The notes below the pieces were generated by a model. The model saw only the letters and a list, made by a program, of their open reading frames with translations. It did not search any database and was not told where the DNA came from. A program made the translations under genes and the position numbers. A DNA stretch of 37,142 nucleotides from a virus, in UHGV virus genome UHGV-1374863; one strand, given 5' to 3'. This document shows, one piece after another, positions 23,758-37,122 of the stretch (position 1 is its first letter; each line of letters opens with the position of its first letter).

Positions 23758-23831
23758 CTGGAATAATGAGACTCGAACTCATGACCGTACGCTTAGAAAG
23801 CGGATGCTCTATCCTGCTGAGCTATATTCCA
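23758..23831 (-). tRNA. tRNA-Arg (anticodon UCU)
   Basis: Hand-folded cloverleaf: 7-bp acceptor stem, D-arm GCTC-AGCAGGATA-GAGC, anticodon loop TTTCTAA, T-arm ATGAG-TTCGAGT-CTCAT. One C-T mismatch in the anticodon stem; CCA not encoded. Confidence 0.7.
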
Positions 23832-26262: not shown

Positions 26263-26562
26263 TTACAAATCGGATTCTTTGACGAATACTCCGTTTACCA
26301 TTTCCCCTTGCCGATTTTTAATTTCGCTATATGCTTGATTTAAACATTCATATAAATCCATATCGTTTTGCATGGCAAGAATAATTAAAGTAACCACTAC
26401 ATCGCCAATGCCATCTCGCAGATCATCTTTATTATCTCTTGCTAAAGCTGCGGCTACTTCTCCTACTTCTTCCGACACTTTCAAATATTGCTTGCTAGAT
26501 TCTGCAATATCCAAGTTTTTTTCTCTTGCCCACGCTTCTACATTTTTTACTAATTCATCCAT
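26263..26562 (-). CDS. MazG-like nucleotide pyrophosphohydrolase (99 aa)
   Basis: EEVGEVAAALAR...DGIGDVVVTL motifs of the all-alpha NTP-PPase fold. Confidence 0.75.
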   Translation of the reverse strand: MDELVKNVEAWAREKNLDIAESSKQYLKVSEEVGEVAAALARDNKDDLRDGIGDVVVTLIILAMQNDMDLYECLNQAYSEIKNRQGEMVNGVFVKESDL

Positions 26563-26582
26563 CTGTTTTTTTCTCCTCTAAT

Positions 26583-27008
26583 TTATTTAATATACAAATC
26601 TTTTTTTCTAACTACGAATCTTCTTCCTTGTTGACGAACAAAAACTTTATCAGCCTTCGTAAATGCTTCAGTGACATACATCGTCGCAGAGTTAGTGTAT
26701 TCTTGAATCAAAATACCTTCTACAGACATCTCACATCCTGAAACATTAAATTTATAAAATAACTCTTTACTTAACGCCGCCTTTTTGGGTTTTAGTTCAT
26801 TTAACCCTCCATGATAGATAAACTCTTTCTTTTTCTCACCGCCGAATTTCTGGCAGCCACATGTTTTGATTACACCGAATTTGCTACGTGGAATGGATCT
26901 AACAACCCCACAATCACATCTAACAATCCAATGCATTCTTTTCTCTTTATCTTCTCCTAGACAAGTTAAATGGTGAATTTTTTGACCTCTGTATTCGCCA
27001 ATATCCAT
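26583..27008 (-). CDS. Cys-rich (CxC...CGC zinc-ribbon-like) hypothetical protein. Start taken at MDIGEY to avoid overlapping the upstream gene
   Basis: ORF; motifs CDCG and CGCQ. Confidence 0.45.
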   Translation of the reverse strand: MDIGEYRGQKIHHLTCLGEDKEKRMHWIVRCDCGVVRSIPRSKFGVIKTCGCQKFGGEKKKEFIYHGGLNELKPKKAALSKELFYKFNVSGCEMSVEGILIQEYTNSATMYVTEAFTKADKVFVRQQGRRFVVRKKDLYIK

Positions 27009-27033
27009 TGCTCTTTTTTTCTGATTGCAACCG

Positions 27034-27288
27034 TCATTGCTCTTCCTCGCTTTCTTCATTTCCAACAAACCTATATTCGTCTATTGATCTCCATTCCCCC
27101 TTTAACGTATTACACCAGAGAACACAGTCTTCTCCCATTTTCATTTCAAAACGTCCCTTTGATCCGATCCCAGAGATTAGCATTACTCGTTTTCCGCCTT
27201 CATTAATCGGGATGGCATACTCAAAAATAATTTCATACTTTTTGAAAAAACCATCTAACATAATTTTTATCGACTCTTCAGTAAGCAT
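27034..27288 (-). CDS. Hypothetical 84-aa protein
   Basis: RBS GGTGAGG; ATG lies 2 nt after the RecU stop. Confidence 0.5.
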   Translation of the reverse strand: MLTEESIKIMLDGFFKKYEIIFEYAIPINEGGKRVMLISGIGSKGRFEMKMGEDCVLWCNTLKGEWRSIDEYRFVGNEESEEEQ

Positions 27289-27290
27289 TT

Positions 27291-27803
27291 TTAAACCTCA
27301 CCGACATAGTCAAGAAATCCAATGAAACCAAAAGTAGTAATTTCATATTCTTTTAACTCTTCTTCAGTCATATATTTACGACCGTATAGAATTTTCATAT
27401 CATCCCAAATCGAGAAAGGAACAAATGCATAAGTTTTTCTAACTTGCACGCATACACCTGCACAAGCTCCGAGTTCCGCATGCAGACGTAAATAATCGGA
27501 CTGCGCAGCGCTAACTACCGATTGCTTGATTCTATCTTCCTGTGTCGTTTTAGCTTCAAAGATAATCGATCGACCGCCTGCAAGGGTTCCTTGAAAATCA
27601 GGTTGGGCCTTTTTATTTTTATGGAATTGTCCTACAAAGGCGCCGTTTGCCATTTTCTTCTTAACAGAGAATGGTTCTGGCGTTTTCTCAACAACAGCTA
27701 GTCCTTTCTTTTTGTAGTGATCGCACCCTAGCAAAATCATTTTTTCAAACAATTGTCCTTGATCGTTATTCATCTTGCTTTTAAAACTTCTATCATAATT
27801 CAT
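27291..27803 (-). CDS. recU: RecU-type Holliday-junction resolvase (PD-(D/E)xK)
   Basis: Motif PDFQGTLAGGRSIIFEAKTT. Confidence 0.65.
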   Translation of the reverse strand: MNYDRSFKSKMNNDQGQLFEKMILLGCDHYKKKGLAVVEKTPEPFSVKKKMANGAFVGQFHKNKKAQPDFQGTLAGGRSIIFEAKTTQEDRIKQSVVSAAQSDYLRLHAELGACAGVCVQVRKTYAFVPFSIWDDMKILYGRKYMTEEELKEYEITTFGFIGFLDYVGEV

Positions 27804-28113
27804 CTAGCGTTTTTCCTCCTCTGCTCTTTTTAGCTGCTTTGATTGCTTCTTCGTAATGATTTTTTGTTTCATAGTTTGCAAACTCTTTAAATTTTTCTGT
27901 ACAACGAACATGAATATATCGTTCATAATTTTGTTGGGATCGAAGTTGGTCTGCTGTTTTAAATTCATACATGTATGAACTGACTGAAATGTACTGTCCT
28001 TGTACTTTTATTTCTGATATATCATATTTCTTTGATAATTTTTTAACTGTTAAATATATTTCATGCGTAAGGTCTAGCAACCCCAAACAAACAACTAAAT
28101 ATCTTGCTTTCAT
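27793..28113 (-). CDS. Hypothetical protein; start taken at MKARYLVV, with ATGA overlap on the Rep stop
   Basis: ORF. Confidence 0.45.
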   Translation of the reverse strand: MKARYLVVCLGLLDLTHEIYLTVKKLSKKYDISEIKVQGQYISVSSYMYEFKTADQLRSQQNYERYIHVRCTEKFKEFANYETKNHYEEAIKAAKKSRGGKTLDEL

Positions 28114-28925
28114 CCTGCACGCTCCTTTTTCCACATTTTGAGATACATATGCATCCCTTTTCGTTCGTTGTTGACAAATTCAATTGATGTGATGTAAAAA
28201 TTAGGGTATTTCTTCTGAAGCACTTCATATCCTTTGTCATTGGATAAAAATAATTTTTCGATTGATCGACTTGAATATTTCGAGTCGTTGGGATGTAACT
28301 TCTGTGGTCGAGATAGATTGCGGCTACAATTCCATACTTTTTTGCCTTTCTTCCAGCGCTTCCCTTTTGAAAAATATCCAGATAACCTTTCAATCCCAAA
28401 ATCTCCATTTGGTTTTATTTTTCTTATATTCACGTAACCAAGCAATTTTTTATTTTTTCCTCTACCGTGCGACCAACATTCTTCTATAGCATCTCTGTTG
28501 ACCCCTTGATTCATAACTAAGTGAAAATGAACCCTTTTAAGATAATTACCTTCTTGGTCCAATTCGTATTCCATTACCCATATATATTTCAATTCTTTAT
28601 CTACTTTTTTGTATAAATTTCTTACTTTCCTCAAAAAATTACTTAAGTCTTTTTTTGCTTCTTCGGCTTTTTCTGGCGGTGGAATGTCTCCTTCGTCATA
28701 AGTTAGCGTTAAATAATAATCACCTTTAAAGAAATTTCCATTCATGGCTAACCTCATCCATTTATAACTTCTCTTGTCATTTGTGAGTTGTTGTTGAGGT
28801 CTTGTCATGTTCTCTTTTCTTTTTCTGGATGTATTACTTAATTTCTCCTTTACTTCGTCTGGCAATGGCACGACATCCACTTCTTGATAATCACCTGCAG
28901 CATACTTATTTTCTCTTACAAACAT
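28110..28925 (-). CDS. rep: Rolling-circle replication initiator (HUH endonuclease, pC194/pUB110 Rep_1-like)
   Basis: Motif 1 YLTLTY, motif 2 VHFHLVM (HUH), motif 3 SGYFSKG (catalytic Tyr ... Lys). Start at the ATG with RBS AGGAAGTGG; a GTG at 28934 is also possible. Confidence 0.7.
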   Translation of the reverse strand: MFVRENKYAAGDYQEVDVVPLPDEVKEKLSNTSRKRKENMTRPQQQLTNDKRSYKWMRLAMNGNFFKGDYYLTLTYDEGDIPPPEKAEEAKKDLSNFLRKVRNLYKKVDKELKYIWVMEYELDQEGNYLKRVHFHLVMNQGVNRDAIEECWSHGRGKNKKLLGYVNIRKIKPNGDFGIERLSGYFSKGKRWKKGKKVWNCSRNLSRPQKLHPNDSKYSSRSIEKLFLSNDKGYEVLQKKYPNFYITSIEFVNNERKGMHMYLKMWKKERAG

Positions 28926-29015
28926 GTTGGCCACTTCCTGAAATAATTTATCTTATGTCCTTAAGTTAATAACTATTACAAGCCCGATAAAACGCCGTAT
29001 TTACAACGTTTTGAA

Positions 29016-29103
29016 TTGATATAGAATTCCAAGAATGGTATAATAAATTATCAGAATATTATTCATTCTTTGAGTTCAGCATTTATGTTGGGCTCTTTTT
29101 TTT
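29016..29103 (+). ncRNA. Candidate ~50-nt countertranscript (ctRNA). Promoter TTGATA-17-TGgTATAAT (29016-29044); terminator hairpin GAGUUCAGCA/UGUUGGGCUC (29072-29095) followed by U8
   Basis: Near-consensus promoter and intrinsic terminator on the plus strand, with no plus-strand ORF. Antisense to the leader region upstream of rep. A second plus-strand hairpin with T-tract lies at 29113-29148. Confidence 0.45.
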
Positions 29104-29152
29104 CGTGTAAAAGCAGCAAGTCGTTTTCACTTGCTGCTTATTAATTTTTCGC

Positions 29153-29905
29153 TTAGGCAATGACTGTTAATTTGTTTTCTTCAATTAATCCTTTTAGAGC
29201 ATCCTCTAAAAACGATTTGATCGATTCCATTGCATGATACTTCCACAAACCACCGTCCGCTTCAAATAATGCACAATTTCCTCGCTCATTAATGCGGAAA
29301 ATAAATTGACTTTCTGGTTGAGGTACTTCTAAAAATGTTCTGTAAGGTTGTAGATCGGCAGGACTAGGAACTTTACCTTCTCCTACTGTGGAAGCACCAG
29401 TTTTCACGGTTGCTGTTTGAGATACTCCGTTATCGTTGATGGTTGCTCCATTATCAATTCTGACCGCACTTGCAAATTTTAAAATCGCTTCTGAATCTTC
29501 TGTTCTATCGAATAATGATTGTAAATTGATAATAAATTCTTCAGTATTCATAAAATACCCATAGTTAAACTTGTCTAAAATCGCTGTTGCTTTAATTAGA
29601 CTTTCTCGTTTTCTATCTAACTCATTTAATCGTCCATATACTTTCACTGACGTAGGACTTTCTACATGAATAAGTAGTTCGTCTGGATCATCGGTAGTTT
29701 CTTGATCAAATTTAGATAAAAGATACTGCACTAAACCAGTCAATGAATTTACTGTTAATGTTTCCGCGTATTTTGCTGGAAACAGTTCTCTTAACGATGC
29801 TTTGTTAGAATCATAAAAAATTCTATCCTCTTCTTTGTAAATAACCGCTTGTCCTTCTGATAGCTCCACTCCGTATTTAATTGCTTCTTTGATATTTTCT
29901 GTCAT
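29153..29905 (-). CDS. Hypothetical 250-aa replication-module protein
   Basis: ORF. Confidence 0.5.
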   Translation of the reverse strand: MTENIKEAIKYGVELSEGQAVIYKEEDRIFYDSNKASLRELFPAKYAETLTVNSLTGLVQYLLSKFDQETTDDPDELLIHVESPTSVKVYGRLNELDRKRESLIKATAILDKFNYGYFMNTEEFIINLQSLFDRTEDSEAILKFASAVRIDNGATINDNGVSQTATVKTGASTVGEGKVPSPADLQPYRTFLEVPQPESQFIFRINERGNCALFEADGGLWKYHAMESIKSFLEDALKGLIEENKLTVIA

Positions 29906-29924
29906 GATTTATCCTCCTAAAAAT

Positions 29925-30383
29925 TTAATTTGTCACTTTCTTTCTAAAGTCAATTACTTCTTGTTTTGTTGCTGACTCTTTTTGTTCCTTTTCAATATCT
30001 TCCACGGATTCGCCAGTATCTGTTTTCACCTTTAAATCTTCGGGGTCCATGTACATTTGACCACGAGTACCAGACTTCAACTCGTTCGCTTCAATGTAGC
30101 CAGTTTCGGCATTACGCCCAAAAAGAACTTTGGTTTCATTTTCATCACGTGGCACAAGTTTAGATTTGCTCTTACATGCTAGTATCACAAGTTCCCGATC
30201 CTTATCTGAGGACACTTCAATTGTTAATGTGATGGTTCTTTTTTTAATTGGATCAGTATTTAAGTCCAAAATATTTTCGAACACTTGTTGCATTTCATGC
30301 TCAAATTTTTCTTGCACAGCTCCTTCGCTTATTTCTGACAAATTCAAATTAATATTTTTCATTTGTTCTCTAGCTCCTTTCAA
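29925..30383 (-). CDS. Hypothetical 152-aa protein with an acidic C-terminus
   Basis: ORF. Confidence 0.5.
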   Translation of the reverse strand: MKGAREQMKNINLNLSEISEGAVQEKFEHEMQQVFENILDLNTDPIKKRTITLTIEVSSDKDRELVILACKSKSKLVPRDENETKVLFGRNAETGYIEANELKSGTRGQMYMDPEDLKVKTDTGESVEDIEKEQKESATKQEVIDFRKKVTN

Positions 30384-30439
30384 TTTTTGAAAAAATCGTT
30401 TATACTGGTATAAATCATTATTTGTAAAATAAATCTTTC

Positions 30440-30706
30440 TTAGACAAGTTCGTTTGCAGACGAATTTGTCTTTTTTTGTCTTCCTCCTAGCCGCTTACTG
30501 TAATTTTTTGTTTTAAGGCCTATTGATGAAGCTTTTGTCATAACTGAAGCAGGCGTTCTTTCTAACGCTAAACTCATTTCTTCTGGCCCAATAATTGCAT
30601 ACCAATTTTTCAAGTATTCGACTTCTTCATAGGTCCAAACCTTGCCTTGATTTTTGTGCAATTCTGGAGAATAGCTCATTCGGCCATATCGATCATAATT
30701 AGCCAT
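30440..30706 (-). CDS. Hypothetical protein, possibly DNA-binding
   Basis: ORF; start taken at MANYDRYG. Confidence 0.4.
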   Translation of the reverse strand: MANYDRYGRMSYSPELHKNQGKVWTYEEVEYLKNWYAIIGPEEMSLALERTPASVMTKASSIGLKTKNYSKRLGGRQKKTNSSANELV

Positions 30707-30708
30707 TT

Positions 30709-30936
30709 TTACCACTCCCAATAAAACAAAATCTCATTGGCATTATTTTTCTCTGCCGCTTTGACTCCTTCTTCTTCTAAAGAATCTAGGAATGGTTGAG
30801 TTAGTCCTTTGCTATTGACTGTTACGCTAGTTTTTCCATTGCTTGCAGCGGCCATAATGTTTTTAACAGCATTGTTTTGCGCATTAGCTAACATTGCATC
30901 ATAAATTGAGTCACCTAAACCTCGTACTTCTATCAA
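30709..30936 (-). CDS. Hypothetical 75-aa protein
   Basis: ORF. Confidence 0.4.
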   Translation of the reverse strand: MIEVRGLGDSIYDAMLANAQNNAVKNIMAAASNGKTSVTVNSKGLTQPFLDSLEEEGVKAAEKNNANEILFYWEW

Positions 30937-31289
30937 TCCAATTCACCTCTCAAAAAAGTTTGTAATAAATCATCTATGTTAGAATCAGATTCACTTGTTT
31001 TTTGTTTAAATCCAAATGCTTCTCTTAAATCTTCGCAATTCGAACAATTACAGGTACCATTTTTAACAGAGTTTAAAAACAGCTCTGTCAATGTTGATAA
31101 AATAATAGATTGATCTATCAATGCTCCTCCCACTAGTGTTGCCTGAGCATCATTATTTTTATCAATAATCCCACACACCATAGGAAGCTCAGCTTTATTG
31201 CATTCGTCTTGTAAACCTTGCAACAAGGCTTCAATTTTCTTATTCATTTTATTAATCTCCTTTTTTAATATATGAATTTTTTGTTCCAA
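30933..31289 (-). CDS. Hypothetical 118-aa coiled-coil protein with a CNCSNC motif
   Basis: ORF. Confidence 0.45.
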   Translation of the reverse strand: MEQKIHILKKEINKMNKKIEALLQGLQDECNKAELPMVCGIIDKNNDAQATLVGGALIDQSIILSTLTELFLNSVKNGTCNCSNCEDLREAFGFKQKTSESDSNIDDLLQTFLRGELD

Positions 31290-35649: not shown

Positions 35650-35727
35650 TAAATATCTCTTCTCTGGTGAGTTCAAGCGTGTTCGATTCACGCTAAGGGC
35701 TTCAATATTATGAAAGGAGAAAGTGAA

Positions 35728-37122
35728 TTGGATAAAAAAGCAGCTATCTATATCCGTGTATCCACTCAAGAACAAGCAACTGAAGGATATTCGATTCAAG
35801 CCCAAACCGATAGACTGACAAAATACGTTGAAGCCAAAGACTTTATTTTATACAAAAAGTATATCGATGCTGGCTATAGTGCTTCAAAATTAGAACGACC
35901 AGCGATGCAAGAACTGATTCAAGACGTGAAGTCTAAGAAAGTTGATGTAGTAATTGTCTATAAGCTTGATCGTCTCTCTCGTTCTCAAAAAGATACTATG
36001 TACTTAATTGAAGATATTTTCAGACCTAATGATGTTGAACTTATTTCAATGCAAGAAAGTTTTGATACATCTACCGCTTTTGGATCGGCGACTGTTGGAA
36101 TGCTATCCGTTTTCGCACAACTCGAACGTAAATCAATATCAGAGCGCATGATTACTGGTCGAGTCGAACGTGCAAAAAAGGGTTTTTATCACACAGGAGG
36201 ACAAGACAGACCCCCTGCTGGTTATCAGTTTAATAGTGATAACCAACTTATAATTAACGAGTATGAAGCAGCAGCGATTAAAGACTTGTTCAGGCTTTAT
36301 AATGATGGACTAGGAAAAAGCTCTATATCGGAATATCTTAAAAAAAATTATCCTGGCAAAAACAAATGGCTACCTAGCAGTATTGATCGCATGCTAAAAA
36401 ATTCATTATATATTGGCAAGGTAAAATTTTCAGGGGTCGAATATGATGGCATTCATGAACCTATAATTGACGAAGTCACCTTCTATAAAACTCAAAAAGA
36501 GATAGCCCGGAGAAAACAAAGCAATACTAAGCGATATAACTATGTTGCATTGTTGGGCGGATTATGTGAATGTGGCATTTGTGGCGCTAAAATGGCTAAC
36601 CGAAGAGCTGTCGGCCGTAAAGGAAAAGTCTATAGATATTATCGGTGCTACTCAAAAAAAGGTAGTCCTAAGCACATGATGAAAACAGATGGTTGTTCTT
36701 CTAAAGCGCAACAACAATTCATCATTGACGAAGCTGTTATAAACAATTTGAAAAACATTGACGTTGAGGCAGAATTAAAAAGGCGATCTGCTCCACAAAC
36801 GAATACATCCTTAATAAGTTCGCAAATCGAGAGTATCGACAAGCAAATAAACAAGTTAATTGATTTATTTCAAGTAGATTCAATGCCACTCGATGTAATT
36901 AGTGAAAAAATCGATAAATTGAATAAAGAAAAGCAAAGTATGGAAAAATTACTTGAACGAAAAAATAGACTAGATAAAACAGAACTACAACATCGATTTG
37001 ATATTTTAAAATCTTTTGATTGGGATAATTCAAGTATTGAAAGTAAAAGAGCAGTTATCGAAATGTTGGTTCAAAAAGTCATTATTCATGACAATTCAAT
37101 AGAAATTATACTTGTTGAGTAG
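35728..37122 (+). CDS. int: Large serine recombinase (integrase) with resolvase catalytic domain, recombinase domain and C-terminal zinc-ribbon/coiled-coil
   Basis: AAIYIRVSTQEQ catalytic Ser motif; VYKLDRLSRS; Cys cluster CECGICG...CYSKKG. TTG start at 35728 preceded by AAGGAG; the in-frame ATG at 35710 has no RBS. Confidence 0.9.
   Translation: MDKKAAIYIRVSTQEQATEGYSIQAQTDRLTKYVEAKDFILYKKYIDAGYSASKLERPAMQELIQDVKSKKVDVVIVYKLDRLSRSQKDTMYLIEDIFRPNDVELISMQESFDTSTAFGSATVGMLSVFAQLERKSISERMITGRVERAKKGFYHTGGQDRPPAGYQFNSDNQLIINEYEAAAIKDLFRLYNDGLGKSSISEYLKKNYPGKNKWLPSSIDRMLKNSLYIGKVKFSGVEYDGIHEPIIDEVTFYKTQKEIARRKQSNTKRYNYVALLGGLCECGICGAKMANRRAVGRKGKVYRYYRCYSKKGSPKHMMKTDGCSSKAQQQFIIDEAVINNLKNIDVEAELKRRSAPQTNTSLISSQIESIDKQINKLIDLFQVDSMPLDVISEKIDKLNKEKQSMEKLLERKNRLDKTELQHRFDILKSFDWDNSSIESKRAVIEMLVQKVIIHDNSIEIILVE

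Follow-up and report, generated by a model that had tools for sequence, protein, structure and literature searches.

A candidate antisense RNA gene and a predicted leader switch upstream of the rolling-circle initiator gene in a phage family

We analysed the virus genome UHGV-1374863, a stretch of 37,142 nucleotides referred to here as the window, around a candidate gene for a small RNA (sRNA) opposite rep, the gene for a rolling-circle replication initiator. The window is a siphovirus-type prophage in which the minus strand holds almost all genes (518-31742). The sRNA unit lies on the plus strand, in the 227-bp gap between rep and the upstream co-directional gene, a member of phrog_1029. Besides the sRNA promoter and terminator, the gap contains a second hairpin, an inverted repeat, a nick-like motif and the Shine-Dalgarno (SD) sequence of rep (Table 1). 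The Rep protein matched PF23343 (REP_ORF2-G2P, 1.9e-15) and phrog_3584 (8.7e-77), and H133, H135 and Y184 were invariant in Rep alignments A1 and A2; judged by its metal-binding motif, catalytic Tyr and profile match, it is an HUH rolling-circle initiator.

The small-RNA gene and its relatives

The sRNA promoter matches the consensus at 11 of 12 positions, has an additional extended -10 TG and was the top promoter-like site in 27000-31000. Promoter-like sites in this interval were no commoner than in shuffled sequences (12 vs 13.6), so a consensus match alone proves nothing and the case rests on conservation. With the start at 29050, as inferred from the position of the -10 element, the predicted 54-nt RNA folds into the terminator hairpin, preceded by a single-stranded 5' tail (-12.9 kcal/mol, z = -3.6), and no open reading frame (ORF) of at least 20 aa with support in relatives was found in it. 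The T-tracts of both hairpins trail the stems on the plus strand only. The second hairpin, whose folding energy is equal on both strands and which is present in some relatives too, is likely a back-up terminator for the plus strand and may also act as a weak bidirectional terminator that serves the upstream gene. An earlier note, made from the letters of this DNA, had described a near-consensus promoter ending at 29044 and opposing all surrounding genes, an intrinsic terminator with G-U pairs, a second hairpin with a T-tract and an RNA of about 50 nt without coding capacity, facing an HUH Rep gene with its ATG at 28925. All of these were recovered in our analysis, the rep start agreed with the starts in relatives, and the folding of the transcript, which the note had proposed as a check, gave the tail and hairpin described above.

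We collected approximately 180 loci encoding Rep relatives from viral, metagenome and genome collections, which yielded 118 distinct rep-upstream sequences. Clustering of these regions at 80% identity gave 45 lineages, in which Rep identity falls to as low as 34%. The same layout was observed in 114 of the 118 regions, over a span of Rep identities from 100% to about 30%; reading away from rep, it consists of the rep start, the nick-like motif, one or two inverted repeats, an outward promoter, a tail and a terminator. The family promoter (TTGnnn-17-TGnTAnAAT) is directed away from rep, is nearly always of the extended -10 type and lies a median of 54 nt (range 30-105) from the nick-like motif. 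It is followed by a transcribed tail of 35-60 nt, whose sequence is not conserved, and by a GC-rich hairpin with a T-run. With a somewhat coarser detector, the unit was found in 38 of the 45 real plus strands, compared to 1 of the 45 reverse strands and none of 180 dinucleotide shuffles. Moreover, mismatches in the terminator stems, counted family-wide in stems aligned regardless of strand, were G·T on the plus strand in 31 cases vs A·C in 7, the signature of an RNA hairpin in a plus-sense transcript. These observations suggest that the small-RNA gene is very probably real. As predicted, it has its own promoter and terminator and would specify a small untranslated RNA opposite rep.

The element is widespread, occurring in more than 100 loci from phages and prophages of Lactobacillales and Clostridia, many of them from the human gut. 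Isolated phages with this layout include Latilactobacillus phage TMW 1.1365 P1, C. perfringens phages phiSM101 (a representative of the episomal type) and PhiS63, Clostridium phage Saumur and Terrisporobacter phage TPDSL_ph2 (29-38% Rep identity). Faecalibacterium phage Toutatis and Butyrivibrio phage Arawn, whose Rep homologs are more distant, have a nick-like motif, but no clear promoter or terminator was detected with it. Neither the motif nor the sRNA unit was present upstream of the Rep homologs of four other loci (L018, L019, L115 and L178; 35-37% identity), whose origin may be located elsewhere; in L018 and L019, an ORF reaches almost to rep. A search of Rfam 15, which includes plasmid countertranscript RNA families, matched only a tRNA in the whole window, and the best match in 28850-29250 was sroB, with 26.3 bits, below the gathering score of 44 (E = 0.25).

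We also noted a second promoter-like site (TTTACA-16-TAGAAT, 10/12) at 29000-29027 on the plus strand, 16 nt upstream of the main promoter. The near-identical locus L105 has TATAAT as the -10 of this site (11/12), and the site was observed in the window's own lineage only. A start near 29034 would give a longer two-hairpin isoform with most of the 5' arm of hairpin H, described below. In loci of the gut clade (e.g., L043, L127 and L146), the terminator hairpin has a conserved apex, GUGUUUCCGGCAC (with UUCCAG and UACCAAC as variants), on a variable lower stem, and this apex could be a loop for the first contact with a target.

Table 1. Features of the window that are discussed in the text
Feature	Position	Strand	Description
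sRNA promoter	29016-29044	+	-35 TTGATA 29016-29021; 17-nt spacer; TG 29036-29037; -10 TATAAT 29039-29044
Predicted non-coding countertranscript, ~50-54 nt	29050-29103	+	5' tail (~29050-29071), then terminator hairpin
Intrinsic terminator T1	29072-29103	+	10-pair stem 29072-29095 with three G·U; T8 29096-29103
Second hairpin	29111-29149	+	Perfect 11-pair stem 29111-29139, then T-rich run ATTAATTTTT
Hairpin H (candidate pre-emptor)	29031-29070	-	Arm 29057-29070 inside sRNA target; arm 29031-29045 is complement of promoter spacer/-10
Candidate anti-SD segment (A')	29025-29039	-	ACCAUUCUUGGAAUU; overlaps 3' arm of H
Candidate anti-SD target (C)	28930-28945	-	UAUUUCAGGAAGUGGC; contains rep SD
Inverted repeat AAAACG...CGTTTT	28989-29012		Between nick-like motif and promoter; pairing kept, sequence varies by lineage
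Nick-like motif	28965-28982	-	CTTGTAATAGTTATTAAC; family consensus CTTGTATGGGGTATTAAC; presumed nick region of double-strand origin
rep SD	28934-28939	-	AGGAAG; upstream of rep ATG
rep ATG	28925-28923	-	Start agrees with starts in relatives
rep, HUH rolling-circle initiator	28110-28925	-	HFH at residues 133-135; Tyr184; PF23343; phrog_3584
Upstream co-directional gene	29153-29905	-	phrog_1029; presumed source of rep mRNA by read-through
phrog_997 protein	29925-30383	-	Annotated as 'replication terminator'
RecU-like Holliday-junction resolvase	27291-27803	-	
MazG-like pyrophosphatase	26263-26562	-	
Serine integrase	35710-37122		

Complementary segments in the rep leader

The sRNA region is flanked by co-directional genes and located 125-178 nt upstream of the rep start codon. 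No rep-sense promoter is conserved in the interval from the sRNA gene to rep, and no promoter of rep's own was predicted; the ORF beyond the terminator was co-directional with rep in 31 of 44 lineages. The rep mRNA should therefore cross the sRNA gene: most likely, transcription of the upstream early operon continues into rep, and the resulting mRNA would include the complement of the sRNA. The classical modes of action found little favour. Attenuation of the pT181 type would involve a terminator-like hairpin in the rep sense, located in the stretch from the sRNA promoter to the ATG; such a hairpin was detected in 11 of the 45 lineages and is absent from the window. Direct pairing of the sRNA tail with the ribosome-binding site (RBS) of rep showed no enrichment (4 of 45 lineages; tail vs rep -60 to +12, z = -2.0), and a direct block of the pMV158 or pC194 type is at odds with the gap of about 125 nt between the sRNA and the rep start in the window. 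With neither an RBS overlap nor a conserved leader terminator, the action of the sRNA must be indirect, and closest to that of pSK41 RNAI.

A basis for such an action is offered by two sets of lineage-specific complementarities. The spacer/-10 part of the promoter (segment A) is complementary to a stretch of the tail at about +8 to +40 (segment B) in nearly every lineage, and the sequences themselves differ between lineages: AAGAATG/CATTCTT in the window, GTGGAGTA/TACTCCAC in L069, CCCTTAAC/GTTAAGGG in L024 and a 21-nt arm in L125. Because arm A lies upstream of the transcription start, the resulting hairpin (H) cannot form in the sRNA, and it can form in the rep-sense strand. Complementarity of the H arms exceeded that of shuffles in 26 of the 45 lineages, and cognate arms paired far better than permuted partners (z = -14.8, 0/2000). 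On alignment A3, 69% of the cells of H were paired vs 33-47% when the structure was slid, with nine pairs changed on both sides.

In the rep-sense RNA, the complement of segment A (segment A') also has complementarity to the SD/start region of rep (segment C), again in a lineage-specific manner, as in L032 (CCACUUUUGA with UCAGGAGUGG), L069 (AUUAUACCAUACUCCACA with UGUGGAGAUGGAUAAU) and L034 and L042 (14-21 pairs). The mean energy of A':C was -16.2 kcal/mol for cognate pairs vs -11.7 kcal/mol for permuted ones (z = -11.3, 0/2000), and a neighbouring control segment of 23 nt, beyond the -35, gave z = -0.6. When the whole leader was searched, the best partner of A' ended within -40 to +15 of the rep start in 35 of the 45 lineages vs 17 expected (p ~6e-8), and its position followed the start codon more closely than the origin motif. 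In the long-leader gut clade, the -10 variants TATAAT, TACAAT and TACACT co-vary with GGTATAAG, GGTACAAG and GGTACACG, respectively, just upstream of the SD. Mismatches between A and C, in strand-neutral counts, were G·U in the rep-sense strand 41 times vs 21. On alignment A3, 78% of A':C cells were paired vs 34-53% in slid structures. Alignment A4, made with MAFFT for the short-leader clade of the window, was too poor around the SD for formal covariation, and we therefore relied on the alignment-free comparisons of cognate and non-cognate segments.

Folding of the window leader in the rep sense (29152-28905) gave H (29070-29057 with 29045-29031) and the origin inverted repeat. When binding of the sRNA was mimicked, by forcing 29051-29103 to be single-stranded or by truncating the RNA at 29049, the minimum-free-energy structure contained a 13-pair helix of ACCAUUCUUGGAAUU with UAUUUCAGGAAGUGGC covering the SD; the centroid of the truncated RNA too had the A':SD helix. 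Across lineages, blocking the sRNA target raised the expected number of A':SD pairs in 13 and lowered it in 1 (Wilcoxon p = 0.001).

These results are consistent with the following model. A constitutive promoter would produce an antisense countertranscript of about 50 nt, with a single-stranded 5' tail and a terminator hairpin. Along the rep leader in the 5' to 3' direction, the sRNA target, of which segment B' is a part, would be followed by segment A', by the origin with its inverted repeat and nick motif and by the SD region C, and A' could pair either with B', forming the local hairpin H as a pre-emptor, or with C. In the absence of the sRNA, H would form first during transcription, the SD would be free and Rep would be made. 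Pairing of the sRNA with its fully complementary target would occupy B' and free A', which would close on the SD and block translation of Rep. As sRNA dosage would follow genome copy number and a resident prophage would probably also supply the sRNA, such a circuit would hold back the initiation of rolling-circle replication by Rep, keep leaky rep expression off in lysogens and possibly exclude a superinfecting relative. We estimate a probability of about 0.6 that the countertranscript represses Rep translation through this pre-emptor/anti-SD switch. The motifs and their conservation, the strand-specific wobble, the lineage-specific complementarities and the predicted change of fold are observed here, whereas we infer that both RNAs are transcribed, what their physiological role is and the sign of the regulation, which is assumed by analogy. 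If the model is true, it would define a new RNA family, explain how a potentially damaging origin-nicking enzyme is silenced in lysogens and dosed in lytic growth, predict a determinant of replication-level incompatibility or immunity between related phages, and provide a compact case of a promoter whose complement encodes a regulatory arm of the opposing mRNA.

Several points weigh against this model. The start of the sRNA is a prediction, as is the rep mRNA made by read-through; there is no overlap of the sRNA with the RBS of rep, to which its tail is at most weakly complementary (z = -2.0). The pairing values on alignment A3 are inflated, as its structures were derived from the same sequences. 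Mean SD accessibility at equilibrium changed from 0.44 to 0.41, which is not significant (p = 0.18); several close lineages were already predicted to have the A':SD helix without the sRNA; and in most long-leader lineages global folding misses this helix, the target of A' abutting the SD rather than covering it. Given the weak equilibrium effect and these folding exceptions, the model needs co-transcriptional (kinetic) folding. Mismatches in H showed no strand bias (30 vs 24, neutral counts), and neither did the assignment of H to a strand by folding energy (25 vs 19 lineages). Finally, segments A, B and C are three copies of one sequence and could be protein-binding sites.

A hydrophobic ORF of 21 codons, MNNILIIYYTILGILYQFKTL, begins within the sRNA target (29066-29001, minus strand). 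We considered whether it forms a type I toxin-antitoxin pair with the sRNA and rejected this; it has no plausible SD, and a relative with 77% identity (L008), read by eye, has no ATG in the matching stretch, for which reason the ORF is probably a by-product of AT-rich sequence.

Alternative explanations and known systems

The three-copy pattern leads directly to a different reading, in which the spacer/-10 sequence, its inverted copy in the tail (+8 to +25) and that at the SD are sites for Rep or a phage repressor, which would control both rep and the sRNA promoter. If the sRNA had an effect, simple duplex formation, cleavage by RNase III or interference by convergent transcription would account for it, with no RNA switch. 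Copies of one sequence are automatically complementary and co-vary with their cognate protein, H lacks strand bias, and rolling-circle origins commonly carry Rep-binding repeats. However, spacing of the copies is highly variable (loops of 7-25 nt, and 70-260 nt as far as the copy at the SD), and indels and bulges distinguish them; the distal one follows the rep start codon rather than the origin, the proximal one is always within the short transcribed tail, and mismatches between the promoter and SD copies lean to G·U in the rep-sense strand (41:21). Direct repeats of the long-leader clade (TATACTTSCGTAAG) and the origin-proximal inverted repeats are also better candidates for Rep binding, and we regard the protein-site explanation as improbable. 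Somewhat less credible again is a role in origin activation or insulation, in which negative supercoiling from outward transcription would melt or extrude the nick region, the terminators would shield the upstream genes and the RNA would have no function. The fairly constant distance between promoter and motif (see above), with the promoter always pointing away, and the lack of conservation of the RNA sequence agree with this proposal, which leaves H, the anti-SD:SD complementarity and the ever-present 35-60 nt tail before the terminator unexplained. A further possibility is that a promoter-like sequence arose by accident next to terminators that simply serve the upstream gene, with no functional RNA. 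The background frequency of promoter-like matches in this AT-rich region is what such an accident would predict; occurrence of the unit in 114 of 118 loci with the right spacing and orientation, the reverse-strand (1/45) and shuffled (0/180) controls and the plus-strand placement of both T-tracts make it extremely improbable.

The element may also be viewed as a single-strand origin (sso). In this case, the displaced strand would fold, H would rebuild an extended -10 element, and host RNA polymerase would make the plus-strand RNA as a primer, as the sole or a second function. RNA polymerase-dependent ssos are established (PMC4595007). On the rep strand, the element is found directly on the 5' side of the nick-like motif; if this strand is nicked, the displaced strand would be the template of the RNA. 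H spans the spacer and -10, also folds as single-stranded DNA (z = -3.8) and has no RNA-like wobble bias (30:24). Promoters of the extended -10 type, with little -35 dependence, are found nearly throughout the family, PF23343 includes the gene II proteins of filamentous phages, and, in a scan of ten replication-region ORFs, neither a primase nor a helicase was recognised. In ssoA, ssoU, F Frpo and the f1 minus origin, orientation-specific promoter elements just upstream of the nick site lie in a hairpin and give a short RNA made by host RNA polymerase, and the present element would resemble them in this if the nick is on the rep strand. In those systems, however, promoters exist only in folded single-stranded DNA, and primers stay annealed and have no U-tract terminator, whereas here the near-consensus promoter is complete in duplex DNA, H rebuilds only its spacer/-10 part and a canonical terminator with plus-strand G·U (31:7) is conserved. 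Conservation of an intrinsic terminator points to a transcript that is made on duplex DNA and released; a primer, by contrast, has to remain on its template. The promoter is thus not one that arises only by intrastrand pairing, as in ssoA, ssoU and Frpo. In addition, the CS-6 sequence (TAGCGT/A), which is conserved in the terminator loop of ssoA-type origins, is absent, neither TAGCG nor CGCTA occurs in 28950-29150, and an sso offers no reason for the complementarity between the promoter complement and the rep SD, which follows the start codon and not the origin. An sso is therefore unlikely in our view, and chiefly possible as a second function. A combined scheme, which we consider a long shot, would give one segment three jobs: the duplex promoter of a copy-control antisense RNA, the anti-SD arm in rep mRNA, and an extended -10 in the displaced-strand hairpin that primes the lagging strand via host RNA polymerase, as in the ssos of plasmids and filamentous phages, within a 37-kb tailed double-stranded DNA phage whose prophage RNA would also be a determinant of superinfection immunity at the level of replication.

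Returning to the pre-emptor/anti-SD switch, its nearest known counterpart is RNAI of pSK41. This RNA pairs with the leader about 100 nt ahead of the translation start of rep and was proposed to induce RBS sequestration without attenuation (PMC5703833). The indirect, at-a-distance translational logic would be shared: the target is far from the RBS, and a leader segment is predicted to pair with either the target region or the RBS, a likeness of mechanism only that implies no homology of sequence or Rep. RNAI is about 83 nt long with two essential stem-loops, whereas the RNA described here has about 50-70 nt, one hairpin and a functional-looking 5' tail. Moreover, pSK41 is a staphylococcal theta plasmid of the RepA_N type with an unrelated Rep; our element belongs to a tailed temperate phage and has the origin within the leader, between anti-SD and SD. 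The rolling-circle plasmid pT181, in which a pre-emptor competes with stem-loop IV (PMC5703833), shares with pIP501 (RNAIII) the principle that antisense binding, in pT181 by RNAI/RNAII, frees a downstream segment to form an inhibitory structure upstream of rep, and with our model also the RBS in that place and the location of the freed segment in the promoter region of the antisense RNA. In both plasmids, however, the inhibitory structure is a rho-independent terminator, whereas a rep-sense terminator-like hairpin occurs in only 11 of the 45 lineages here, and the pT181 initiator is of the Rep_trans type, compared to PF23343. The countertranscripts of the rolling-circle replicons pMV158/pLS1 (RNAII), pC194 and pUB110 are similar in kind, and RNAII also in shape, with 48 nt, one terminator hairpin and a single-stranded tail at the 5' end, from which pairing starts (PMC5703833). 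These RNAs are complementary to the rep initiation region and act directly, whereas our sRNA region lies 125-178 nt upstream with no significant direct complementarity, and no repressor partner of the CopG kind was identified here. Countertranscript control of Rep synthesis, which the earlier note had proposed by reference to the pC194, pLS1 and pT181 families, is supported by comparison in each of its sequence-level elements (promoter, terminator and HUH Rep), and the leader switch offers it a way to act. Two corrections apply: RBS overlap and a conserved leader terminator were not found, and the target is most likely read-through mRNA, as no promoter of rep's own was predicted.

Temperate phages also use short terminator-ended antisense RNAs, such as lambda OOP, P22 sar, P1/P7 c4 and the P4 CI RNA. 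OOP adjoins the replication genes and was formerly proposed as a replication primer; its target is cII, not the initiator. To our knowledge, these RNAs have no link to an HUH Rep or to rolling-circle origins, nor do they use an anti-SD switch of the kind proposed here. Antisense-RNA copy control is a textbook plasmid mechanism, and a full-text literature search returned nothing on antisense RNAs that control an HUH Rep in tailed phages, an absence that is no proof. What appears to be new here is the predicted lineage-specific pairing of A' with the sRNA target segment or the rep SD region. The element would represent plasmid-type countertranscript control in a new class of replicon, with an unusual overlap of promoter and anti-SD. 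Also peculiar is that the anti-SD arm is encoded by the promoter of the antisense RNA itself and that the origin is inside the loop between anti-SD and SD.

Origin region and genome setting

The nick-like motif is near-invariant (GTTAATAnnnnATACAAG read away from rep, CTTGTATGGGGTATTAAC on the rep strand). It occurs in nearly all loci, 17-204 nt upstream of the assigned rep start, and in one copy in the window. We take it to resemble the CTTGATA-type origins of phiX174 and pC194 and the f1 origin. From its position, the inverted repeat next to the motif is presumed to be a Rep-recognition element of the origin. The combination of nick motif, outward promoter and terminator may serve as an annotation signature for the origin in this phage group.

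Several observations concern this region in relatives. Long-leader loci (L048, L120, L127, L148 and others) contain 2-4 iteron-like direct repeats, TATACTT(C/G)CGTAAG (TATACTTSCGTAAG), between the nick motif and rep (A3 columns ~300-375), which are candidate Rep-binding sites; in L148 and L068, such repeats are also present between the sRNA promoter and the origin inverted repeats. A partial second copy of the promoter sequence (ATGGATAATA) was observed 77-96 nt upstream of rep in L127, L146 and L154. In phiSM101 (L192), the terminal hairpin of the predicted sRNA (~1017-1046 read on the minus strand, GGCGTTAATATCTAGTAACTATTAACGCC) holds a second near-copy of the nick-like motif (GTTAATATCTAGTAC at the origin), which might be a second nick or termination site. 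In predicted folds of the rep-sense strand of the window, GAGCCC (29090-29095, the complement of the terminator 3' arm) pairs with GGGCUU of the nick-like motif (28979-28984), enclosing H and the inverted repeat. A final GGGCU or GGCUU, which could pair with the invariant AAGCC(C) of the motif, is seen in the terminators of other lineages as well.

Among the ten ORFs scanned in the replication region (26263-30383, minus strand), products of the phrog_997, phrog_1029, Rep, RecU-like and MazG-like types were recognised, and no helicase, primase or single-stranded DNA-binding protein was. A tRNA gene (62.6 bits; 23758-23831, minus strand) lies between the packaging and the replication/early regions of the prophage. 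We found no DNA-level similarity of the region to annotated phages. Rep relatives in cultured phages have less than 40% identity, and a whole-genome scan gave distant relatives only, the contigs with exact proteins being metagenomic. The terminase is approximately 60% similar to those of Streptococcus phages, which suggests a host in Lactobacillales. Rep relatives in PLSDB were confined to Clostridium perfringens and Paraclostridium records of about 14-40 kb, none of which is a characterised rolling-circle plasmid. The plasmid records of 34-40 kb with Rep relatives are about the size of phiSM101 (38 kb), and members of this Rep family may support an episomal prophage state.

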